Positions 25 to 45,615 of a stretch of 45,624 nucleotides of DNA are shown piece by piece. Within the stretch, counting starts at the first letter, position 1. Every line of letters starts with the position of its first letter. Origin of the DNA: a phage; assembly GCA_033193195.1 (NCBI GenBank), contig GCA_033193195.1_4326.1. One strand, 5' to 3'. Both the position numbers and the translations under genes were made by a program. Below the pieces are notes generated by a model. That model was not told where the DNA came from. It was given only the letters and a program-made list of their open reading frames with translations, and did no database searches.

Positions 25-696
25 ATGGTTGTTTGGTCTTTATTTGATGGTTCAGGGCTGGCTGTGAAAGATTGGGCTGAGGCTGGTCACTAGTGCTACT
101 GTTTCAACTTTGATGAGTCTGACCACGGTAGTTACGGGGATTTAAATGCAAAATTTGAACATGAGAACATCACCTACGTTAATGCCTGGATAGATGGCAA
201 CTTCGACTTTGATGTGAAGCCTGATATCATTTTAGCGTTCCCGCCGTGTACGGATTTAGCCGTGAGCGGGTCAAGGCACTTTGAGCGAAAGCGACTGGTT
301 AACCATAACTTCCAGATTGAAGCTGCGGATACATGTAAAGTTGCTTTTAACTTGGCTAATAAGTACGAAGTCCCATACATGATTGAGAATCCAATCAGCG
401 TACTGTCATCACTCTGGAGAAAGCCTAATAAGACTTTCCACCCATATGAATACGGAGGCTATTTGCCGGAAGATGATTTACACCCGTTTTTTAGCGACCT
501 AATAAAGCCAAGAGACGCATATCCTAAGAAGACATGCATTTGGTATGGCAATGGGTTTAAATGGCCAGAGGCGATTCCTGTGGACGTTAACGATGGATTC
601 TCTGACCAATACAAGAAGCTTGGTGGGAAGAGTAAGAAGACAAAGGTAATTCGCAGTCTAACTCCTCGCGGTTTTGCAAAAGCAGTCTTCATAGCA

Positions 697-714
<18 letters not shown>
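25..714 (+). pseudogene. DNA (cytosine-5) methyltransferase-like gene interrupted by in-frame TAG at 91..93
   Basis: ATG 25 preceded by GAGAGG; N-term MVVWSLFDGSG (motif I-like), then TAG at codon 23, same frame continues to AFPPCTDLAVSG (PC motif IV-like) and MIENP (ENV-like); track ORF 214..714 is the downstream part. Confidence 0.5.
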
Positions 715-1976: not shown

Positions 1977-4900
1977 TTAGAACGTGCCTACAATAACTTT
2001 CCCTCCATTCGGTAGGTTAACCGTGATTCCATTGCCGTTAATCTGAACCGTATTGTTAGTTCCGTTAAATGCAAAGTTACCACTATCTGCGTAAAGCCTT
2101 CCATGAATTTCTGCATTACCAGACTTCTCAATCCTCCACCCAGCACTTCCTTGAACAAAGTTGTTTGATTGAATCGAGTTACCAATCTTCGCGTTAGTGA
2201 TTGAACCATCCTGAATCACTGTGCTTTGAATGAATACCTGATTACCTTCAACTACGAAAGGCAATGACCACTGACCGGAACCTGAACTAACACCGTTACT
2301 GATTGCGAACCTGTTAGCATCAAAGATGACCTGACTACGAACATTGCCATCAGAACCAGTTAGCGCCATACTCATGCCAGAACTGTACTCAACGCCATTG
2401 TATTTGAGGCCAAGTTTAATCCCGTACTGAGCACCAATTGAATCGGCAGTAACGTAAGTGTCCAGCTTCTCATTTAACGCAGCCTCATTATCACCTAGCC
2501 TTGCAGATAAAGCAGTGTCCGCAGTGGTCCTTGCTTGCGTCTCTTCCGCTAGCGCCGTATCAATCCTTGTCAATGAAGCTACAATCTCATCATCAATCTG
2601 CGCCTTAAGCTGCGTCAGAGCCTCTACGCGAGCCCTTTCTTCATCGGCGATAAGATTCACAGCCTGAACAAATTCGGCCTTCCTCTTGCCGTTTTCCTTC
2701 GTCATTCTACGCACGTCACCATCATTAGCCAGGGCGTTCTCAATTATTGATTCCGCTTGCGCCTGAATAGCTCCGTTTGACTCAATGGCATTCTGTTGGA
2801 GATACTTGAACCCATCTGAGTTTTCTATATCAACCTTAATATCACCAATGATTGACGACACATCATCGCTTGCCATACCCCTTACAAAATCAGTCCATGG
2901 TGAGACGTTACCAATCTTGTCAATCAGTCGCGCCCTGTACCAGATGACCTTTCCAGCAGGAAGTGTAGTATGCCAGTACTCGTAACTCGGGTAAGGCACC
3001 AGAGTCAGAAGGCTAGCATTCTCTGGTGTATAAGTACCATCACCATTGTCGGCTACTTGCTGCAATTCAGTGTATGACGTATCGGCTGAGTTTTCAGGAA
3101 ATCCCCACTTAACCCTAATGCCGAATATTTCATCATCTGAAGCGGTGATTACTGTAGGTGAAGAAGGGGTCCCAATCTTGCCTGTGAGGCTTACTGAAAC
3201 AATGTCAGACCATGCGGATACGTTTTCAGTATCAGAAACGGCCCTTACGCGAACCTGGTAAATTCCGGCATAGATACCTTCAATATCAACCTCTGTGCTT
3301 GCTGTGCGCGGCACGTTAATCCAGTTTCCGTTCTCCTTGCGCCACTGGACCGTGTAGGTTTTCGCGTACTGAACCTTGTCCCACGTGATTACCATTGTCT
3401 CAACTGATAAACCCTGAACAACCTTACTGTAACTGCTAACCTGAACATTCTCTGGTGCCAGCAGTGTATCCGGCTCGACGATTGAAGTCGGCCTATCAGT
3501 AATGTTTACGCCGTAATCAATTTCGTCGTATTTGTTAGGGTCGTACTCAACCGCTGTAATCGTGTAACCAAACGCATCATCTCCATCGCTGTCTGCTTTT
3601 TGAATACCGGTCACAACATATTGCTGAAGAGCAAGATTTTCCTTATCAATCGCAAATACTGTGTCAGGCTGAGGAGTAAAGCTAAACGCTGTATTAAGTT
3701 GCAGCGTCATACCATCTTCAGATACAGATGCAATGGTCCTGTACTCTGGCATTCCATCAGGCTTGTTAATAAGAATCCTGTCGCCAGCAGCAGCGTCAAT
3801 CTTAAAGGGTACGAAAACCTGCAACCCACTAACAGACTCAATACGCCCAGAAAGATTAAGCGTGTAGTTGCTAGACCATGCCTGGTCATTAACTGCAATC
3901 ACTTCACCAATCATTGGGATCATGCCTTCCAGACCAGTAGTGAAACTGATTGTCTCACTGCGCAAGTTTGTCTTTAACAGCCATCGACCGCGTCTGTTTG
4001 CCTCACTCCTGCGTGTACATCCAATAGCGGTAAGGTCAACAGGGTTGTAACCAAAACGCCTTGTTGCCTCTAACTCGAATACTGGCTCAACATCCTGTTG
4101 GTATGAGTTTTCAACGTCATCAAACTGAACGTTGGCAACCGTGTAAAGTGACTTATCGCTACCAAATGTACGGTTAAAAACACCATCAACAACGTTGTCA
4201 TTGGTGAATACGTACGATGGTTGACGCGGCTTATCGACAACAATCCCTATCTGCTCGCCGTCATAGAATGTCAGCCCACGGAAGATAGAGCAAATATCAC
4301 GGATTACCTGATATGCTTCAACTTTCTGCTGAATGACAACATCACACAGGTAGCGCGGCTCAACTCCACCCTTACCATCTGGAACCATCTGGTCACAGAA
4401 TTGCGCCGCCTCATACAGACCCCACTTATCAATAGTAATGCCAAGCTCTCGCTGGTCAAGTCCGTAACGCTGATTCGTCACCAAGTCGTAAAGAACCCAC
4501 GCCGGGTTATTGGAATACGCCATCTTAAAGGTGCCGTTCCAGGTTCCGCTGTAAGTCCTTGTCTCTGGGTTGTAGTTATTTGGAACGCGAATCAACTTCC
4601 ACTTCTTCTTGATTGAAATCGTCGGGATTCCGTTAGGGAAGAGGTCAGAACTGAACTCAACGTAAACCAGAGCTGTAAGTGGGTAGCGGAATTTAGCATC
4701 AATTACTTCCTGATAGGTCGTAATTTGCATGTCGTTAACCAGCGTCGAACTTTCTGAATCTGCCGTGATCTTACGAACCCTCACCAACGCACTCGAGAAC
4801 TCAGCAGGAAGGTTAACCCTGATACTTCTGTCGTACCCGCTAGTTGTCTTGCCATTAACTACTCCGCGCGTGTACTCAGTGTATGTAGCGCCATCAACGG

Positions 4901-22571: not shown

Positions 22572-22647
22572 TGGTGTTCCGCACTGGACTCGAACCAGTA
22601 ACTAAGACTTAGGAGGTCTTTGCGTTATCCTGTTACGCCAGCAGAAC
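22572..22647 (-). tRNA. tRNA-Arg (anticodon CCU, decodes AGG)
   Basis: 76 nt cloverleaf by hand: acceptor GTTCTGC/GCGGAAC (one G-U), D stem GCGT/ACGC with GG loop, anticodon stem AAGAC/GTCTT, loop CTCCTAA, T stem ACTGG/CCAGT, T loop TTCGAGT, encoded CCA. Confidence 0.8.
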
Positions 22648-24764: not shown

Positions 24765-25286
24765 CTATTTAGTCTCCTTAATCATTTCCTGGTATGCGTT
24801 AATCATTGATACTGCACCCTTAAGTTCATCACCTTCAAGACCAGCGACGCTTGGTGATAGTTTCAACAATCGAGCCTTGAACCTTTCAATGGTAGCCGCC
24901 TCCCTCTCTTGCTCTGCTTTGCTTCTTGAGCCGGATTTTACAGCGCCAGGAACCAGGCTAAGTGATGCGCAGTATGTCTCACTCTCGCCCTCAAAGTCGG
25001 TAAAACTAAGTGAGAACCTTGAGCGCACGTCAGCCGCCTTAATCTCAGGCATTCGGCTTACGGTGTTTGAAACGTATGACGCTTTTAGTTTTGGCATGTG
25101 GTATTCACCACCAGGTAGAACCTCCTCACCACTTAGCGATACGAACGTCTCACGACTCATGCCGAAGTATTGACGAGCAATCATGGTCACAGGGACTGTG
25201 CACACTTTGTCTTCTGACTTGAGCGCCTGACTCGCCATGTATCGAATGATTTCACCCAAACTTACTGCTTCTTTATGTTCTGACAT
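24765..25286 (-). CDS. hypothetical protein, first gene of leftward unit from control region A
   Basis: 173 aa ORF; sigma70-like TTGATA-N16-TACCAT upstream. Confidence 0.5.
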   Translation of the reverse strand: MSEHKEAVSLGEIIRYMASQALKSEDKVCTVPVTMIARQYFGMSRETFVSLSGEEVLPGGEYHMPKLKASYVSNTVSRMPEIKAADVRSRFSLSFTDFEGESETYCASLSLVPGAVKSGSRSKAEQEREAATIERFKARLLKLSPSVAGLEGDELKGAVSMINAYQEMIKETK

Positions 25287-25886
25287 ATTCGTTACTCCTG
25301 ATTGGTTGCTCTTCGTTAAGATGAAACCATGGTATCATGAATATACGCGTTATCAAGTGTTATGTTGTGTTTATATCTGCATTGGTTACGCTTTTTGACC
25401 TCTCAGCCCAGCTATAGCTGGTGTAATTACCCTGTGTAAGATTTTACGCGGATTCGCCGGGGGTATGCATATGTATCTATATAGATAAAATTAGTAGTTT
25501 TCATAGAAAAACTATCGACCCATCAATACGACCAATCTACACCATATACATACATATATATAATAATAATAATAATATAGTAAAAGGTTGATATATATAG
25601 ATATTATTATGTAACCATTGCGTAATCTAGCGTGGTAGGCGTGTATGATTCTTCGGAAGCGCACCTCATATACACACCATAACTTCGATAACGTGTATAT
25701 CCAAATTGGCTCAGCAAGAATCAAAATCAACTTGTATGGTAGTTCATCCACCATTCATTCACCCTCACATCAATCATTGCAAATCCCGCAACAATCAAAA
25801 ACATCATTGCATTCGATGCAATATTGTTATATGTGCAATAGTAAGATTAATCATTGCAATATCTGCAACAATAGATAAATCCAACG
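25287..25886. promoter_or_regulatory. control region A: AT-rich noncoding divergent-promoter region, paralogous to 45108..45572
   Basis: shared blocks with region B (CAGCCCAGCTATAGCT; ATAATAATAATAATA..GGTTGATATATATAGATATTATTATGTAAC); palindrome TATCTATATAGATA; TTGCAA-core repeats 25760..25880. Confidence 0.6.
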
Positions 25887-25932
25887 AATAGCACTTTTTG
25901 CTAAAGACATTTAGGTATTGCGGAGTTATAGT
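25887..25932 (+). promoter_or_regulatory. family promoter for rightward early unit
   Basis: AATAGCACTTTTTGCTAAAGAC, TATAGT 25927..25932. Confidence 0.55.
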
Positions 25933-27705: not shown

Positions 27706-29289
27706 ATGTTTGATTTCAACGAAGATAAACTATCTGTTGAGCAGGTTATGGCAATCGCTGCCAATGAAAACCTACCACCGCTTCGCGTGGCTATTAATGC
27801 CAATGGCTATCGACATTCTCAATCGTTCTGGAAAGCACCTGTCGAGATTGATACAGGTAATGATAAGTATCCAGTAATCTCACTCGGTAATGATATTGAT
27901 GTTGTTGGTAAGCTATCGGCTAATATCGCTCGCTCGGTTCAGTTCCCTGAGTCGTCAGCTTACATGCACTTTCTTGGTTGTGTTTCTGCTGCAATGCTTG
28001 GGCGTTTTACTGTCGAGTATCATGGAACCCAACAGCCAACATCTTTGTACGTGGTAACAAGTCAGCCGCCTTCAACTGGTAAATCAGCCATTAACTCGCT
28101 ATCAATTGCGCCGATGATTGCTGAGACTGAGCGGTTGAATAAAGTACGTAAACGTGATCGAAAAAAGATTATTGCTAAACTGTCCGCTCTGGCTAAAGAG
28201 ATGAAGCAGGAGAAATCACCTTCTGAAATGGCTTCACTTTTTGAGGAGAAGGAGGATTTAGAGGAGAAGCTCGAGAAGCTATGCGATATAGTATTCCCTG
28301 TCTCCGATACTACTCCGGAAGGTCTTGCGCGAATCAACAATCGCCAGGGTAATTTTGCGGTAATCTCTGATGAGGCTACTAGCGTCAACTCACTGTTAGG
28401 CATGACTTACGGTGATGGCTCGAAGAAAACGAACAGCGAGCTCGTGCTGAAAGCATGGGATGCAGGTAATGTGTCAATTGCCCGTGCGAACGCAGAAAAT
28501 AACATGAGCTTTGTGGCTATGGGATGCATCTCCGTAATTGCTCAGGATGAAACAATCAATGCCATTATGAATGCTGGTGCGCGTGGTATTGGTGTATCTG
28601 AGCGTTTCCTTCTGGTGCGTGAAAAATCATTTCTTGGCGAACGTGTATTTGTTGATGAAAATGGTGATTCAACCTATGAGGCTATTGATGACGGCCTGAA
28701 AGCAGACTATTTCCGTCTTGTTCATGAGATTATGAATGAAGTTGAAGTGAAACTTACTGTAAGCGCGTCATCAATGCGTTACCTTAACCGCGCTCGTCAA
28801 GAGATGGAGCCTCATCTTGGTGATGGTGGCAAGTATTCTCACACAATGTTGCGCGGTGCTCTTGGTAAGTTTGATAAGCAAGCAATCCGCATCGCTTCTG
28901 TTCTGCACGTAATTCGTAACTGGTTCTCACCAGCCGGATCCAGCCCTCAAAAGTCAAGAGAGATTGAACTGGATACAATGCAGGAAGCGGTTATGATTTT
29001 CAACGAACTAAGCAAGACTTATTTATCATCCGCTAGTGCTGCTGGTCATGCTGGTGACAATGCCGAGATGAACAAGCTGGTTGATATCCTGATTAAGCAG
29101 GGCAAGAATGGTAAAGGTGTTGTTGGTGTTCGCTCGTTGTATGAGGCTGCACGCAAGGTTAAACCTTTTGAAGCTCAGGCTGGAATTATGACTCGCATTA
29201 AGGACCACTTGATTCCTATGCTTGATGAGAAAAACTACACATGCCTGATTGGTGATAAAATTTACATTAATCCACTATTGCTGGGGTAA
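27706..29289 (+). CDS. P-loop NTPase, possibly replication-associated
   Basis: QPPSTGKS Walker A-like motif, 527 aa. Confidence 0.5.
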   Translation: MFDFNEDKLSVEQVMAIAANENLPPLRVAINANGYRHSQSFWKAPVEIDTGNDKYPVISLGNDIDVVGKLSANIARSVQFPESSAYMHFLGCVSAAMLGRFTVEYHGTQQPTSLYVVTSQPPSTGKSAINSLSIAPMIAETERLNKVRKRDRKKIIAKLSALAKEMKQEKSPSEMASLFEEKEDLEEKLEKLCDIVFPVSDTTPEGLARINNRQGNFAVISDEATSVNSLLGMTYGDGSKKTNSELVLKAWDAGNVSIARANAENNMSFVAMGCISVIAQDETINAIMNAGARGIGVSERFLLVREKSFLGERVFVDENGDSTYEAIDDGLKADYFRLVHEIMNEVEVKLTVSASSMRYLNRARQEMEPHLGDGGKYSHTMLRGALGKFDKQAIRIASVLHVIRNWFSPAGSSPQKSREIELDTMQEAVMIFNELSKTYLSSASAAGHAGDNAEMNKLVDILIKQGKNGKGVVGVRSLYEAARKVKPFEAQAGIMTRIKDHLIPMLDEKNYTCLIGDKIYINPLLLG

Positions 29290-34939: not shown

Positions 34940-36649
34940 TTAATCCTCCATCGTGAATGATTTGTTGGCGATAATGTCTTGAGACTTCTGGTTTTTACGG
35001 TGTGTGATTCTCAATGGGGCACGGAATAGATGTGCATTTGTCATAATCATTCTAGCATTACGCAATCTGCCAATTCTGAATGCCTCAGTCCTGTTATCGA
35101 TGTGTGTTAAGCAGAAAGCCTTCCATTTAACAGAGCAAACGCGATGGTCTGATTCAGGGAAGAATGTTTCATAAGCTCGGAACTTATCTCCACTATGAGC
35201 CATTACCTCATATGAAGCAACGATCCCTGACTGGTTCTTTGTTAACCCAATCTTGAAGTCATAAACTCGCAACCAGTCCCCCTTACGATACATTTTTCCT
35301 GATAACTTAGCATTCGGGTCTATGAGCATCTCACCACAGCATCTGCAATTCTTAGCTGCAATATCATTCTTCTCACCGCATCCTTTCTTAATGATAGCTT
35401 TGGTCTGTGGGTCCACTATATCTTCACACAGTCTAAACTGAAAGAAGTGCTCACAGCGCTTCCCGTCAATTACGTTATTGCAGCGCCTGGCTAATGGAGA
35501 GTTCACATAAGAGCATGCCTGACAGATTCTTGGCTCACCAACACGCTTTCTTGCTGACCTAAATTTCTGGTCTTGTACCTCTTCTATAATTGGGTCGAAG
35601 TAAAGTTCAGCCATATCATCAAGCGTTCCAGCAAAATCAAGAACAACATGGTCATCTTTTACCATTCCAGCTTCTTTGTGCTTCTTCTTAAGGATACGCA
35701 TACCACGACCAAGCAACTGAATGAGTAGAGTAATGCTACCAACCTTCCTCAGGATAATGCTTGTATCCCACGGGGGGCAGTTTACGCCAGTTGTGAGGCA
35801 ACCAATCTGAAATATGAACTTATATTCTCCGTTGGCTGCCTTCTCAAGTATCTCTCTACGCTTATTCTCACCAGTGGAGTTGGTAACTATCGCCCAAGTA
35901 ACACCTTCTGGAAGTGCGGCTGCCGCCTCCTCGCAATGCTGTTTGCTAGCGCAAGTTACCAATGCAGCATTCCTTGTTTCCATAAACCTAGCAGCAAATC
36001 CCATTATCTTTTGTGTCATCGTTTGGTTTTCGTGAATCTTTGCAGCCATCGCATCCATTTCTTTCTTGCTGAAGTCCTTAACCCCATCACTTCCATCAGG
36101 AGTGAACTCACTAAGGTCGTAGCCCAAATCACCAACTTCACCGTAGACAGTAGGAACAACGAACCCCAAGTCAACAAGGTAGCTGGTTGGCACTTGCATT
36201 ACAGTTTTGCGCCAGAATCCACGGACATTTGGGTTACTAACTACAATGTGGTCGTTGTTACGGTACGGGCTACCAGTTAACCCAAAGATACGAAGTTCGC
36301 GACCGTACTTCTCCTTGCATCGACGCTTCATTTCGGTAATGATTAACGTGTATTGCGCGCGACCAGTGCCAAGAAGCCCGGTATTCACACCATCCTTAAA
36401 GACCATCTCACCCTTCTTCGTGCTCATCTGCTCGAATGTTTCCTCATTCTCTTCAGCTTCTACGATATCCATATGGTCCACCATGTGGCAATTATGTGCC
36501 ACGACCCCGTCAGCAATGAAATTATGGTGCTCAGGCATCTCTATATCCCAAACAAGTTCCTTGCCAATGGGTGAGATGTCTTTAATTTTGCTTGATTTTG
36601 TATTCCACGCCATTTTACATGTGCTTACTAATTCTCTTAAAAAACTCAT
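34940..36649 (-). CDS. SF2 helicase C-terminal fragment preceded by intein C-terminal splicing segment
   Basis: N-term ..ELVWDIEMPEHHNFIADGVVAHN then CHMVDH; helicase motifs LTGSP and QLLGRGMR; C-terminal Cys-rich zinc-finger-like region; ATG 36649 with GAGG upstream. Confidence 0.75.
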   Translation of the reverse strand: MSFLRELVSTCKMAWNTKSSKIKDISPIGKELVWDIEMPEHHNFIADGVVAHNCHMVDHMDIVEAEENEETFEQMSTKKGEMVFKDGVNTGLLGTGRAQYTLIITEMKRRCKEKYGRELRIFGLTGSPYRNNDHIVVSNPNVRGFWRKTVMQVPTSYLVDLGFVVPTVYGEVGDLGYDLSEFTPDGSDGVKDFSKKEMDAMAAKIHENQTMTQKIMGFAARFMETRNAALVTCASKQHCEEAAAALPEGVTWAIVTNSTGENKRREILEKAANGEYKFIFQIGCLTTGVNCPPWDTSIILRKVGSITLLIQLLGRGMRILKKKHKEAGMVKDDHVVLDFAGTLDDMAELYFDPIIEEVQDQKFRSARKRVGEPRICQACSYVNSPLARRCNNVIDGKRCEHFFQFRLCEDIVDPQTKAIIKKGCGEKNDIAAKNCRCCGEMLIDPNAKLSGKMYRKGDWLRVYDFKIGLTKNQSGIVASYEVMAHSGDKFRAYETFFPESDHRVCSVKWKAFCLTHIDNRTEAFRIGRLRNARMIMTNAHLFRAPLRITHRKNQKSQDIIANKSFTMED

Positions 36650-37629
36650 CTTGTGCCGACCTCGTTGTTATTGATACTGAGTAAAGCTCTCTCTTTTTCT
36701 TGCCGCAAATATAGCTTATAACCTTAACTCCGTCATTAGCAATAAATGCTATTAGCGCATCAACTACTGATTGAACTTCACGCCTGCTAAATGATTCGGT
36801 GTGGATTTCTACAACCCTCCCCCCTGAGCTTACAGTGCAATGACCATCATCACCAAAGTAAGCAGCCCAACCAACTGGATCAAGCTCTCTGCATATCTTT
36901 CCAATATCGTAACCATCCTTAGAATTTCCGTACTTATCAGCATATGAATCCAGAACTTTCGTACATGATGTTGATACGCAAAACCAGTTGTCGCCAAATC
37001 CAGGGTTTTTCTTCTCCCTGTATCTAGGGTTTAGTTTTGCAAACCTTTCAACCTTGCTTAGTGCGTGCTCCTTATTTCCATATTCCAAGATAGCCTATGC
37101 GTTCCTTTTTCTGTATTTTTAATCAAGCAACCATCACCAGCCATTGCCGCAAGAATGTTTTGATGTAAAAAGTCATCAACCTCCATTTATGGGTTGACGG
37201 TTGAATTATGATGCCCCGTTCTGTAATCCAAATAGAAATCGAAAGGGTTCTTAAGAAGTACGCCTAACCCCTTGCTTGAATGCGGCATAACTTTTTCACC
37301 ACAGCCACACTTGCACGCAGAAGCTTTTTCGTAAATTTGTCCTGCGAGCCGTCTAGCGACAGATTCATCCCAATACGAAGTTTTCCCGCTTCTACCCAGC
37401 AGCCGTTCGAATAAAGTTTGTGTGTACTCGTGCATTTTATTTCCTCTCCGCTTTCTAATTTAATTGATAATACATGTCTTACACCATTAGTAAAAACTCT
37501 TTTTGGCTTATGATAGAAGTAATCACCAGTGCTTTCGTTTATGCATTTTATTTTATGATTGATAAGGTCTTCGCTATCAATCCTCATCATCCCTGAATCG
37601 GTGGTTATCATCGTGTCTCCAGTTAAGCA
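36491..37629 (-). other. intein inserted in helicase DECH motif; LAGLIDADG endonuclease core disrupted
   Basis: blocks CLTGDTMITT and CTSTHKL..W in N-extein frame; ILAAMAGDGC and WAAYFGDDGHC in two other frames; in-frame TAA 37187..37189; length 1139 bp is not a multiple of 3. Confidence 0.7.
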
Positions 37630-38073
37630 CTCATCTATCGCGATAACAGCAGGAGCATAGTCACCAAGCCCCTTAAACAAGCCGTTAGCAGCCGTTCCCT
37701 CACTAGCCACTATGGTTGGATAGTAAACTGATTTAACGTTAAGGCCAGCGCAATAGACGCTATTACGGATGCCGAAATTACGAAGTTCCTCTGCGTTCTG
37801 GCTGATAATCTCTGACTGGCGAGATAGGACCATGTAAGGAAGGCCAAGCTGTTCCATTCGTTTCCCAATCATGGCGAGTATAATTGTCTTACCAGCAGAC
37901 ACCGACAGGTCTGCGATGAATGGCGCTTCGTACTTGCCAATAGCCTTACCGATTGCGTCAAATGTCACGCACTGGAATTCGTAAGGCGTTATGTCTCCAA
38001 ACTGGTAATCTTTCTGAATCTGTTTAATTTTCTCTTTATCAAAGTTCGCCACTAAGCGCTCTACTGGAAGCAT
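37264..38073 (-). CDS. SF2 helicase N-terminal fragment fused to intein N-terminal splicing segment
   Basis: Walker A SVSAGKT, ..VIAIDE then CLTGDTMITT; stops 121 codons into intein. Confidence 0.75.
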   Translation of the reverse strand: MLPVERLVANFDKEKIKQIQKDYQFGDITPYEFQCVTFDAIGKAIGKYEAPFIADLSVSAGKTIILAMIGKRMEQLGLPYMVLSRQSEIISQNAEELRNFGIRNSVYCAGLNVKSVYYPTIVASEGTAANGLFKGLGDYAPAVIAIDECLTGDTMITTDSGMMRIDSEDLINHKIKCINESTGDYFYHKPKRVFTNGVRHVLSIKLESGEEIKCTSTHKLYSNGCWVEAGKLRIGMNLSLDGSQDKFTKKLLRASVAVVKKLCRIQARG

Positions 38074-38169: not shown

Positions 38170-38643
38170 ATGTGTGAAATTGACAAGCGAACTATCAACG
38201 GCAATAACGGAACCATCCGCACGCAAGACAAGAAACAGCGCAAACGACCGTCAGGCTACTACGTATTGAAAGATGAAGTAAAGGCTGGGCTACGAGCTCG
38301 TCTGGAGATGGTTCTTGATTTCTACGGCACGAAGGCCAATATCGCCAAGCAGTTAAATGTATCTCACCAGACTGTAGAGCAATGGTTTGATCGCGGGATG
38401 ATTTCGGCTAGAGGTGCCCAGAGGGCTCACAATGCATACAAGCGAAATAAGGAAGGCTTTAGAGCTACGTTCTGCCGACCAGACCTGCAATTCGACGGAA
38501 ACGGTAAGCCATTAACGCTTAGATGCAAGAAACGCCATATGCTGCGGGTTGTTACCGAAGCTGAACTAGCAACAAAGCCACCATGTCGACCATGGCGCAA
38601 GAATAAGATTGCCAACGAAGCAGCACGAAAAGCTAAAGATTAA
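38170..38643 (+). CDS. HTH DNA-binding protein, candidate transcription regulator
   Basis: GTKANIAKQLNVSHQTVEQWFDRG helix-turn-helix-like segment; GAGGTAA SD. Confidence 0.55.
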   Translation: MCEIDKRTINGNNGTIRTQDKKQRKRPSGYYVLKDEVKAGLRARLEMVLDFYGTKANIAKQLNVSHQTVEQWFDRGMISARGAQRAHNAYKRNKEGFRATFCRPDLQFDGNGKPLTLRCKKRHMLRVVTEAELATKPPCRPWRKNKIANEAARKAKD

Positions 38644-38694: not shown

Positions 38695-39174
38695 ATGAAC
38701 TGGCATGATTATTTTTACTATGTAGATGGCAAATTGCATTGAAAGATTAGCACTGCAAGACGTGTTAAGGTTGGCGATGAGTGCAACTCACTATCTACAT
38801 CTGGCTATTACAAAGTGTCTGTTAATGGCTTTAGGACTTATGTACATAGAGTTGTGTGGGAGATGTTTAATGGAGAACTTCAAAATGGCGACTACATTGA
38901 TCATATAAACCATAACAAATTAGATAACAGAATAGAAAACCTAAGAGTAACAACAAATCAAGGTAACTCAAGAAATTGCAAGCTTAGCGTTTTATCAACA
39001 ACTGGTTATTGTGGAGTGGCAAAGCTAAATCACGGAAAATTTAAGGCTTACATCAAGGTTGACGGCAAGCAGCTACACCTTGGTAACTTCGATACTCCAG
39101 AGCAGGCGTATAAAGTAAGAATTGAAGCAGAGAGAAAATACAACTTTCACGAAAATCACGGTTTAAGCAAATGA
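38695..39174 (+). pseudogene. HNH-AP2 homing endonuclease-like gene with in-frame TGA at 38740..38742
   Basis: MNWHDYFYYVDGKLH-stop-KISTARRVKVGD (Trp expected in G.L.WK motif); HRVVWEMFNGEL..DHINHNKLDNRIENLR HNH; YCGVAKLNHGKFKAYIKVDGKQLHLGNF AP2-like; GGGAGA SD. Confidence 0.65.
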
Positions 39175-40094
39175 ATTACGATAAGAATGAAGTTATACCT
39201 AAGATGGCCGGATTGTGGAAATCATTTTATGCAAAGGAACTTGGTTGGAATGATAGACACCTAAGTAAGAAGCACGGACCATGCCCATACTGCTTTGGCA
39301 CTGACAGATTCAGATTTACCGACGAAATAGGCAGTGAAAAAGGAAATGGCGCGGCAATTTGTTCGAAATGCGGAAGTGACTCCGGTATAGGGTGGGTCAT
39401 GAAGTGCACTGGATTGTCCTTCGCCGATTCAGTAAATTTGCTTGGTGACTGGCTGAACTTAACACCAATTGAGGTTATAGTTAAAGCTAACAAGCAAGCA
39501 TCAAGAACGCTGCGTTATAAAATGGGCGCTCAAGTAGACCACAAGAAAGTTCTTGAGGTCATGAAGAGGACTCAGCGAGTTGAATCTAGTCCACTCACGA
39601 CATACGAGGGTATTTATGACGAGTTTGGTTTTGATGTTGGTATAGCTAAAAATGGTTCAATGATTCACGCAATCCCTTGTTCGATGGTTTATGAAGATGG
39701 GCTTAGTGATGAGTTCTGTAACGTAATGTTTATTGATGAGGATTCAAATGTTAAGTTCCTTGCTGGTGATTACACTCGTGATTCTGTTTCCGTTATTGGT
39801 TCTAAGCAGGATGATAGTTATACTTATGTTGTTGACAATTATATTGATGGCATACGTGTTCACCTTGCTACTGGTGGGCGCGAAGTGTTTGTTGCTTTCT
39901 CCTGTTACAATATGGAGATGGTTATCCACCGAGACAAGTCAAGGAAGTTCAGAATTGCTTGCCGTGATTCTGATATCGATATCCTTGCTGTTGCTGACGA
40001 TAGGTGTGTTGATGTGGTGATTCCTAACGACGGTAAGTCATTTAAAACAGGCATACGAAAGAAAGTGTACAAAGCCAACGACTTGCTAAACTAA
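39171..40094 (+). CDS. DNA primase (zinc-ribbon + TOPRIM-like)
   Basis: HGPCPYCFGTDRFRF..CSKCGSDSG zinc-binding pattern; acidic D.D and DG motifs in C-terminal half. Confidence 0.6.
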   Translation: MNYDKNEVIPKMAGLWKSFYAKELGWNDRHLSKKHGPCPYCFGTDRFRFTDEIGSEKGNGAAICSKCGSDSGIGWVMKCTGLSFADSVNLLGDWLNLTPIEVIVKANKQASRTLRYKMGAQVDHKKVLEVMKRTQRVESSPLTTYEGIYDEFGFDVGIAKNGSMIHAIPCSMVYEDGLSDEFCNVMFIDEDSNVKFLAGDYTRDSVSVIGSKQDDSYTYVVDNYIDGIRVHLATGGREVFVAFSCYNMEMVIHRDKSRKFRIACRDSDIDILAVADDRCVDVVIPNDGKSFKTGIRKKVYKANDLLN

Positions 40095-40137: not shown

Positions 40138-40160
40138 AATTTTAGCAATTCGTGCTATTT
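40138..40160. promoter_or_regulatory. orphan copy of family element in opposite orientation to the downstream gene
   Basis: TTTAGCAATTCGTGCTATTTT with no consensus -10 in either direction. Confidence 0.4.
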
Positions 40161-44912: not shown

Positions 44913-45107
44913 TCAATCCTTAATTTTAACAATCTTAATAGCTTTCAAATCTTCTTCAGTGAAGTATCCTGTCAGCAACTCCTTGGCCTCTTCCTTTGTC
45001 TCGAATTGGTCGGCTTCAGATTTGTTGGTAGTGTATCCAGCGGGGCCACCAAAGTAGCAATCGCCGAACAGTGCGTTGTTTTTCTCTTTAATAATGAAGT
45101 ATGGCAT
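44913..45107 (-). CDS. hypothetical protein, first gene of leftward unit from control region B
   Basis: 64 aa; TTGGAC..ATCATT promoter-like and ATCGAAAGCACGC leader upstream. Confidence 0.45.
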   Translation of the reverse strand: MPYFIIKEKNNALFGDCYFGGPAGYTTNKSEADQFETKEEAKELLTGYFTEEDLKAIKIVKIKD

Positions 45108-45572
45108 TTCTCTATCTCTCTATTTTTGCGTGCTTTCGATTAGTTAATGATGCCGCACGCAAGACACACAGTCCAATTGGTATCACCGATTAATTAATCA
45201 AGTATACGCGTATAAATCCGTAACTACGTGTAGACATTGCCATTAGTTACGTTTTTCACCACTTCAGCCCAGCTATAGCTCAATGTAAATAGTGCGTATA
45301 CCGTGTATACCGATTTTTGCGGAGGGTGCATAGGTATATGCGCCACGCAATACTGTATAAAATCACATTATATAAAAATTATAACCGGAACACTCCAGAA
45401 CAGTAGTTACATGATATACACAGTAATATATATAATAATAATAATAAGAGTAAATGGTTGATATATATAGATATTATTATGTAACTATGGCGTATCAAAG
45501 CGTAACTAGGCGTATACGATTTCCCGCTGATGCATATGGTATACATAGAGTTACATCGGTTACGCGTAACCA
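45108..45572. promoter_or_regulatory. control region B: AT-rich noncoding divergent-promoter region paralogous to region A
   Basis: same conserved blocks as 25380..25650; palindrome GGTTACGCGTAACC at 45558..45571. Confidence 0.6.
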
Positions 45573-45615
45573 ACAGCACGAATAGCTAAAACTAATCCGC
45601 AAAACCATGTATAGT
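45573..45615 (+). promoter_or_regulatory. family promoter at window end, oriented toward window start
   Basis: AACAGCACGAATAGCTAAAAC, TATAGT 45610..45615. Confidence 0.5.

Follow-up and report, generated by a model that had tools for sequence, protein, structure and literature searches.

The stretch of DNA considered here, contig GCA_033193195.1_4326.1 of GenBank assembly GCA_033193195.1, is 45,624 nucleotides long, and we refer to the whole of it as the window. Our subject is a pair of non-coding regions in this window, region A, at positions 25287-25886, and region B, which runs over the window end at a junction that is contiguous in relatives, together with a module that the two regions share. 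Judged by its sequence, the window is the complete, circularly permuted genome of an Rtp-like (T1-like) virulent siphophage of the family Drexlerviridae, since the window end continues at the window start, as in phage A110b and in one IMG/VR contig. Its gene order agrees with that of Rtp. Phage T1 belongs to the classic set of seven T phages, and T1-like phages are notorious for contaminating laboratories and fermenters. A blastn search with both regions against GenBank phages matched more than 130 Drexlerviridae records, the nearest relatives being Escherichia phages ES and AN_ECEAS, followed by Rtp, IME542, G8 and MSK. A pattern scan of IMG/VR returned 10 loci; the comparisons reported below were made on GenBank phage records.

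The original prediction, made from the letters of the window alone, placed each region between a leftward and a rightward transcription unit, and the neighbouring genes agree with it:

24765-25286, minus strand: rtp1 homologue, DUF7174, left neighbour of region A
25918 onwards, plus strand: small early genes, right neighbours of region A, in a rightward block that reaches the DUF3987 helicase
44913-45107, minus strand: nearest gene of the leftward rtp46/recE/erf/ssb operon, left neighbour of region B
25 onwards, plus strand: methylase-like open reading frame (ORF), cor-like lipoprotein and rtp44, right neighbours of region B

Region A resolves into three parts: the shared module, a probable pac segment and a known 21-nt promoter repeat. 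The whole of 25287-25886 had been described as one member of a paralogous pair; the part held in common with B is a module of about 378 nt, and the remainder, up to 25886, is specific to A.

25338-25715, plus strand: module A, a copy of the common non-coding module, 72% identical to module B (z about 60)
45198-45575, plus strand: module B, the second copy, whose orthologues are as conserved as adjacent coding DNA
25716-25886: A-specific probable pac region, absent from B, where conservation among the aligned A orthologues is highest

All the motifs on which the paralogy had been proposed were found in their places. The block CAGCCCAGCTATAGCT is present at 25404 in A and at 45265 in B; an identical 30-mer, GGTTGATATATATAGATATTATTATGTAAC, lies at 25586 and at 45456, with an (ATA)n tract directly upstream and GCGT repeats directly downstream; and there are palindromes at 25474 in A (TATCTATATAGATA) and at 45558 in B (GGTTACGCGTAACC). 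Compared by blastn with the whole window, region A yields two high-scoring segment pairs, both in B, one of 116 nt at 82% identity (E = 5e-25) and one of 41 nt at 88% (E = 1e-6), the latter in sequence of normal GC content; the same search gave no third copy of the module in the window. The global alignment of 25338-25715 with 45198-45575 has 72% identity over 356 aligned positions, and its score stands about 57-63 standard deviations over shuffles that preserve local composition in bins of 10-40 nt. The two flanks of the AT-rich core are significant by themselves, with z-scores of 16 on the left and 12 on the right. The pairwise alignment that had been proposed as a check thus rules out a mere low-complexity artefact, and the paralogy of A and B, seen also in their orthologues, comes out more strongly than was claimed.

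We extracted and aligned 8 orthologues of A and 13 of B, and A and B are colinear over the entire module in these alignments. The left part holds, in order, a TTACGCGT-type palindrome, GTAAY/GTTAT, GTTACGYTTTT, CAGCCCAGCTATAGCT, CGTGTATA repeats and a TCCGCGGA-like element; the core consists of TATACA, (ATA)5-6 and AGTAAAAGGTTGATATATATAGATATT..TGTAAC; the right part comprises three GCGTA repeats in 10-bp phase, a second CCGCGGA-like element, and GTATACA..GTTACA..TTACGYGTA. Mutual identity is 77-94% among the B orthologues, which is the level of neighbouring coding DNA, and 48-80% among those of A. The identity of A to B is about 0.58, within genomes and also between genomes, which indicates old paralogues that evolved independently under selection, and rules out concerted evolution by gene conversion.

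Each of the four subfamilies sampled, Braunvirinae, Rogunavirinae, Tunavirinae and Tempevirinae, has the pair, and has it in the same two places. The two copies match at 75% over 91 nt in T1 (Tunavirinae; E = 4.5e-10), at 68% over 123 nt and 66% over 103 nt in TLS (Tempevirinae), and at 82% over 68 nt in Rogue1 (Rogunavirinae); in these three phages the A copy is at the left genome end and the B copy upstream of recE. The duplication is ancient, both copies have been kept by selection, and the modules are real, ancient, selected cis-elements.

Both modules contain an AT-rich core with short repeats beside it:

25534-25613: AT-rich core of A, 85% AT, with TATACA, (ATA)n and TTGATATATATAGATATTAT, the least stable 80-bp duplex of the genome
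45408-45487: AT-rich core of B, 84% AT, the second least stable duplex of the genome
25609-25646, plus strand: right iteron set of A, TGTAAC/GCGTAA/GCGTGG/GCGTGT, with starts at 25610, 25620, 25630 and 25639 (steps of 10, 10 and 9 bp), kept in the alignments
45479-45517, plus strand: right iteron set of B, TGTAAC, GCGTAT, GCGTAA and GCGTAT, with starts at 45480, 45490, 45500 and 45510, in exact 10-bp phase
45294-45310, plus strand: left iteron pair of B, GCGTATAC/GTGTATAC, 9 bp apart
25581-25593, minus strand: core consensus for integration host factor (IHF) in A, TATCAACCTTTTA
45451-45463, minus strand: IHF core consensus in B
45414: DnaA-box-like ATATACACA in the B core, 8/9 match

The core is near-invariant across all orthologues, and invariant over about 85 nt in the 13 B orthologues. 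When 80-bp duplexes of the window are ranked by instability, computed from nearest-neighbour energies, the A core comes first (z = 5.5) and the B core second (z = 5.3), the next segment being at 3.9. The cores of A and B are also the two least stable duplexes in ES, Rtp, Msk, T145P1, A110b, T1, TLS and Rogue1: over the window and these 8 genomes their z-scores lie at 4.4-6.3, and the segment of rank 3 never exceeds 3.9. Both cores thus have the character of the AT-rich DNA unwinding element of an iteron-type origin. Such origins also carry phased direct repeats, rare elsewhere, beside the unwinding element, and these are present too, with the caveat that their units are short, 6-9 bp.

The repeats are largely a property of the modules. 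In the window, TACGCGT occurs 5 times in the modules against once in the remainder (p about 8e-11), GCGTATA 5 times against 3 elsewhere, and 8 of the 17 genome matches to GYGTAWAY fall in the 1.7% of the genome that the two modules occupy. Rogue1 has 4 copies of TACGCGT in its modules and 0 elsewhere. The module motif of T1 is (C)GTGTAACA(G), with TGTAACA found 6 times in the modules and 0 times elsewhere (p about 5e-15), and that of TLS is GTGAACA/TGGAACA. The motif changes between subfamilies yet is always common to A and B, a pattern expected of sites that are read by a co-evolving phage protein. Of 4 genome-wide matches to the IHF core consensus WATCAANNNNTTR, 2 lie at homologous positions in the A and B cores; a match to it in the core is a feature of Rtp-like phages. 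GATC sites do not cluster, and neither module contains one.

Outside the core and its repeats, each module carries inverted elements and a conserved block:

25338-25374: left outer arm of A (TGAATATACGCGTTATC...GTTATGTTGTGTTTAT), an inverted repeat of 25668-25703 (17 nt at 88% and 16 nt at 88% in the repeat search)
25668-25703: right outer arm of A (ATATACACACCATAAC...GATAACGTGTATATCCA), with the same inverted repeats as the left arm
25404-25419: CAGCCCAGCTATAGCT block of A, exact in A and B, which holds the 10-bp palindrome AGCTATAGCT
45265-45280: CAGCCCAGCTATAGCT block of B, with the same palindrome
45203-45214: left palindrome of B, TATACGCGTATA, its motif enriched in the modules
45558-45571: right palindrome of B, GGTTACGCGTAACC

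The modules are thus bracketed by palindromes (TATACGCGTATA and GGTTACGCGTAACC; TACGCGTA-type palindromes) or by inverted arms of about 35 nt. The CAGCCCAGCTATAGCT block is largely kept in the 13 B orthologues and in 4 of 7 aligned A orthologues, and is degenerate in the A copies of T145P1, A110b and IME542. Its palindrome (25410-25419 and 45271-45280) consists of two inverted ATAGC half-sites that resemble ATAGCAC, the head of the 21-nt repeat discussed below, and one factor might, by this resemblance, read both.

Two copies in direct orientation, a boundary of imperfect inverted arms of about 35 nt, and accessory genes next to B that vary (where the window has a methylase, EC3a has a DNA-binding protein and Rogue1 an anti-repressor) bring to mind the relic of a mobile element, similar to a miniature inverted-repeat transposable element with its terminal inverted repeats, that was inserted twice, or else a packaging or recombination signal present twice. 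However, the positions are syntenic in four subfamilies and the divergence agrees with old, vertical inheritance; neither A nor B shows a visible target-site duplication, and copies were found neither in plasmids nor at a third place in the window. The strong purifying selection on the internal blocks argues for a function, and the ends of virion DNA map outside the shared module, at A only, which speaks against a doubled packaging signal. We regard this origin of the modules as highly improbable.

The outer arms of A-type and B-type modules differ by double changes at two positions that keep them complementary, and symmetry at the level of the DNA fits this observation as well as base pairing does. 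Pairing would be expected if the modules were transcribed into paralogous structured non-coding RNAs, or into a structured leader, for example from a weak promoter in the core. Consensus folding energies computed by RNAalifold are indeed far below those of column-shuffled controls (z of -4 to -12), and four predicted pairs have double changes that preserve pairing. However, over 442 columns the consensus energy is just -14.6 kcal/mol and its covariation term -1.1, and the structure conservation index is 0.17 in A and, among the almost identical B sequences, 0.56, so that a conserved RNA structure with covariation does not emerge. The signal comes from the palindromes and from the arms, at long range (more than 300 nt), both equally compatible with DNA sites; the conserved core, at 85% AT, folds poorly as RNA; and we found no Rfam match and no convincing pair of promoter and terminator. 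An RNA function is therefore highly improbable.

A coding function was considered as well. The original prediction dismissed the low-complexity ORFs that overlap the regions as spurious, rightly so: in most orthologues, stops or frameshifts interrupt all four. A 16-codon ATA-rich mini-ORF in B fares no better, its frame and ATG being lost in the A copies.

At or beyond the module edges lie predicted promoters:

25329-25356, minus strand: P_A-left, sigma-70 promoter of the early-left operon of the rtp1-like (DUF7174) gene, -35 TTGATA, 16-nt spacer, extended -10 TGaTACCAT, position weight matrix (PWM) score 11.6
45147-45181, minus strand: P_B-left, promoter of the rtp46/recE/erf/ssb operon, TGGACT, 17 nt, CATCAT, PWM score 7.0 in the window
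25888-25932, plus strand: rightward promoter of A, of the 21-nt-repeat type, ATAGCACTTTTTGCTAAAGACA, -35 AAGACA, 17 nt, -10 TATAGT (25904-25932)
45573-45615, plus strand: rightward promoter of B, of the 21-nt-repeat type, ACAGCACGAATAGCTAAAA, -35-like TAAAAC, 17 nt, TATAGT at 45610-45615 (equivalent part 45587-45615)

P_A-left is predicted at the same column in all 8 A orthologues, with a mean score of 11.3; its -10 varies within TAnnAT only, and the TG is kept. It overlaps the first 19 or so nucleotides of module A, an overlap that the other promoters do not have, and a palindrome, ATACGCGT (TACGCGT), lies inside its spacer. The position of P_B-left is kept in 12 of 13 B orthologues (mean 10.1), and a second leftward site is present in 8 of the 13; its -10 is TATAGT in most relatives against CATCAT in the window. 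The rightward promoter of B is predicted to drive genes across the window junction (25 onwards). Inside the module, a PWM scan of all orthologues gave just weak, ambiguous sigma-70 matches, which lie within the (ATA)n tract. A spacing of only 11 nt between TTGATA and TATTAT/TATAAT disqualifies the invariant 30-mer as a standard promoter.

The 21-nt repeat ATAGCACnnnTTGCTAAAR occurs 16 times in the window, where 0.39 copies are expected; sample sites are at 698, 11922, 19806, 24645, 25888, 26853, 31081, 34504, 43923 and 45573. German et al. (2024) published it as an intergenic repeat of Drexlerviridae (aaATAGCACnnnTTGnTAAAA) and left its function open (PMC11447400). At the A and B sites, the two examined, the 3' end of the repeat supplies a -35-like hexamer 17 nt upstream of a TATAGT -10, which suggests that the repeat may be the upstream half of the standard promoters of this phage. 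One perfect copy, at 40140-40158 on the minus strand, lies between the primase and tail-fibre genes, both on the plus strand, and faces the primase gene in the antisense direction; about a dozen other copies were checked for gene context, and all of them are oriented with their genes.

The proposal that the regions are bidirectional promoter hubs therefore holds in part. Conserved outward promoters on both strands are predicted at each region, leftward ones of sigma-70 type and rightward ones of the 21-nt-repeat type. However, they lie at or outside the module edges, and the module itself does not appear as a promoter pair. In TLS, module B sits between two genes of the same strand; since it is not between divergent genes there, bidirectional promotion cannot be what conserves the module.

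A broader role in transcription has to be taken seriously. The modules may be control hubs of early transcription, at which a regulator, for instance the rtp52/gp23 helix-turn-helix (HTH) protein or the DUF7174 protein, would loop the DNA with the help of IHF so as to repress the divergent early operons or set their timing; the AT core would be an UP-element or a weak divergent promoter pair, and the modules would have no role in replication. Several observations agree with this explanation: the strong conserved leftward promoters and the rightward repeat promoters, as predicted at both regions; the TACGCGT palindrome in the P_A-left spacer, a classic repressor position; inverted outer arms about 330 nt apart, compatible with looping; the IHF consensus at the module centre; weak conserved sigma-70-like matches on both strands of (ATA)n (GTTACA-N17-19-TATAAT and TTTACT-N18-TATATT); and the half-sites of AGCTATAGCT, similar to the head of the 21-nt repeat. 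However, about 380 nt are conserved at a coding-like level, far beyond the needs of an operator, and a fixed (ATA)n length and an extreme instability minimum in four subfamilies are not needed for repression. The basic promoters are placed at or beyond the edges, so that the module is dispensable for them, a point that we count in favour of replication origins; B of TLS precedes one operon only; and no further promoter of the genome carries the module motifs, which do not, then, mark the regulon of a general regulator. A pure operator hub for early transcription is the main rival of the origins proposed below and nearly as likely, which leaves it possible, though short of probable.

The third part of region A has its own story. 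Segment 25716-25886 contains 27-nt direct repeats, at 25769-25795 and 25846-25872, around an inverted repeat of CATTGCA/TGCAAT motifs at 25800-25828. Position 1 of the T1 record, a terminal-repeat end, aligns to about 25826 and position 1 of Rtp to 25828, and the PhageTerm start of MSK (PMC8421802) aligns to 25739. These ends are those of database records and of one published PhageTerm run, from relatives of the window phage; all fall within 25739-25828, outside the shared module, and none at B. The suggestion that the paired regions might be packaging signals can thus be kept for this segment only, which is probably, by these alignments, a pac region; the shared module and B do not fit it.

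We now turn to the proteins that might act at the modules:

27706-29289, plus strand: DUF3987 helicase, MCM-like (superfamily 6, SF6), with a C-terminal winged helix, candidate replicative helicase, transcribed rightward from region A
38170-38643, plus strand: Cro/MerR-like HTH regulator of the rtp52/T1 gp23 family, 54% identical to T1 gp23, kept throughout the family, with members in T1, TLS and Rogue1

The model of the DUF3987 protein (527 amino acids, predicted local distance difference test score 88.7) has an AAA+ core and a C-terminal winged helix of the form helix-strand-helix-helix-strand-strand, and its top Foldseek matches are MCM2-7 subunits. Proteins with DUF3987 are reported to be SF6 helicases of 5'-3' polarity that partner a primase in the replication of mobile elements (PMC11724360). 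The phage also encodes a zinc-ribbon primase, at 39171-40094, which with the helicase makes a replisome of the mobile-element type, and T1-like primases are annotated as P4-alpha-like or DnaG/P4-alpha-like. Candidate initiators are the winged helix of the helicase, the rtp52-like HTH protein and the DUF7174 protein; the HTH protein could also be the trans-factor that reads the module motifs, or else the 21-nt repeats. T1 is without a homologue of the DUF7174 protein (rtp1), which was rejected as a universal partner. Sequence comparison of these three proteins with the PDB gave nothing usable.

It is tempting to read A and B as ancient paralogous cis-acting sites for the assembly of nucleoprotein complexes, with the anatomy of iteron-type origins, that is, as putative paired origins; we favour this reading, named as a possibility in the original prediction and the closest fit to the anatomy, with somewhat less than even confidence. 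It builds on the observed homology, conservation, motif specificity, duplex instability, promoter positions and helicase fold; protein binding, melting and initiation are inferred. At the centre of each site would be a melting element of about 80 bp and 85% AT, with phased GCGTA-type repeats beside it and inverted TACGCGTA-type palindromes and arms outside. A sequence-specific protein encoded by the phage would bind the repeats and co-evolve with them; the core would be opened with the help of IHF or intrinsic bending and of divergent early transcription; the MCM-like helicase and the DnaG/P4-alpha-like primase would then be loaded at the opened core. The two sites would be two origins, or one origin and a cis-enhancer bridged by one protein. 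The palindrome in the P_A-left spacer suggests that the same protein may also throttle early-left transcription, so that the roles of origin and operator may be coupled.

Genome papers report neither an identified replication origin nor iteron-like repeats for T1-like phages (PMC11447400, PMC7718038). That the modules are these missing Drexlerviridae origins, bipartite (two origins, or an ori and a crr-like enhancer), at which a lineage-specific iteron binder and the AT core load the MCM-like helicase while the same sites gate early transcription, is a fuller proposal that we hold more tentatively than the paired-origin anatomy itself.

Several points weigh against origins. The repeats are few and short (5-8 bp), and their binder is putative. 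A fold search found no similarity of the helicase to the origin-binding domain of P4, and its putative recognition helix is acidic and hydrophobic. The cores of T1 and TLS lack the IHF consensus, and the DnaA-box matches reach just 8/9 and are weakly enriched. AT-rich DNA, palindromes, an operator in a promoter spacer and an IHF site also fit a transcription-control hub. The strong RecE/Erf system means that T1-like phages could rely mostly on recombination-dependent replication, and two origins 20 kb apart would be an unusual requirement. In either case there are now two precise candidate sites, of about 380 bp each, family-wide and with defined motifs. Should they be origins, they would reveal how a virulent phage recruits an MCM-like (SF6) helicase, and offer handles for engineering or blocking these phages; should they prove to be transcription hubs, the early regulatory switch of the family would be defined by them.

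A few further observations concern the genome around the modules. The gene adjoining module B on its right varies, from a methylase (window, A110b) to a DNA-binding protein (EC3a), a pRha anti-repressor (Rogue1) or none (ES, Rtp), and this edge looks like a hotspot of accessory-gene exchange:

25-714: varying gene in the window
3210-3857: varying gene in locus L003
27017-27646: varying gene in locus L022

In the window this gene, a cytosine-methyltransferase-like ORF (25-714, plus strand), has an in-frame TAG at codon 23 (91-93), where the relatives A110b and L010 have ACT (Thr). Three neighbouring substitutions, ACACTT to ACTAGT, give both the TAG stop and a SpeI site; a knockout that arose naturally, an engineered amber mutation and read-through are all conceivable. 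The rtp53-type SNF2/DEAD helicase gene (34940-38073, minus strand) is split into three ORFs in the ORF list, with Hint motif matches in 37264-38073 and 34940-36649 and LAGLIDADG_2 matches in 36615-37088; it appears to be split by an intein with a LAGLIDADG homing endonuclease. GATC occurs at just 37 sites in 45.6 kb, against about 178 expected from length; in T1 and TLS, more than 200 methylated GATC sites are recorded in the literature. The sole tRNA is tRNA-Arg, anticodon CCU, at 22572-22647 on the minus strand, as also reported for other T1-like phages.

Among known systems, phage P4 is close in plan. Its ori and crr are separated cis elements with the same short iterons, both bound by the alpha protein; here too, two separated sites have common repeats, and T1-like primases bear the P4-alpha-like annotation. 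The TLS motif GTGAACA/TGTTCAC resembles the P4 octamer TGTTCACC. However, P4 alpha unites primase, SF3 helicase and winged helix in one polypeptide, whereas the primase and the MCM-like (SF6) helicase are separate here, and the searches made with the helicase gave no match in structure to the origin-binding domain of P4.

Plasmid iteron origins (pSC101, R6K gamma, P1 oriR) combine an AT-rich unwinding element, an IHF site, direct-repeat iterons and inverted half-repeats over an autoregulated promoter, a position comparable to that of the TACGCGT palindrome within the P_A-left spacer. Plasmid iterons, however, are about 19-22 bp long, two helical turns apart, and bound by winged-helix proteins of the Rep family, whereas the repeats here are 6-9 bp long and one turn apart, and no Rep homologue was found in this phage.

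The origins of Escherichia coli phage-inducible chromosomal islands (PICIs) with comparable pri-rep proteins consist of two iteron sets around an AT-rich region (PMC6092414). PICIs and the Staphylococcus aureus pathogenicity islands (SaPIs), with primase/helicase initiators, share with our modules the two sets of short repeats around a putative AT-rich melting region (PMC6092414, Fig. 2 legend). Their ori, however, is single and adjoins the pri-rep gene, whereas the modules are two, at 2 kb and about 20 kb from the helicase gene; the repeats are shorter here, and the helicase is a candidate binder.

Segment 25716-25886 would correspond to the pac region at the left genome end of T1; it aligns with the starts of the T1 and Rtp records and with the PhageTerm peak of MSK (PMC8421802, PMC7718038); it differs from the modules in lying outside the A/B paralogy, with no counterpart in B. 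Finally, the 21-nt repeat of Drexlerviridae bounds each region at its right, with one copy at 25888 and one at 45573, oriented with transcription and upstream of a start codon. It is an element separate from the shared module and outside it, which we read here as the -35 or upstream part of sigma-70-type promoters.

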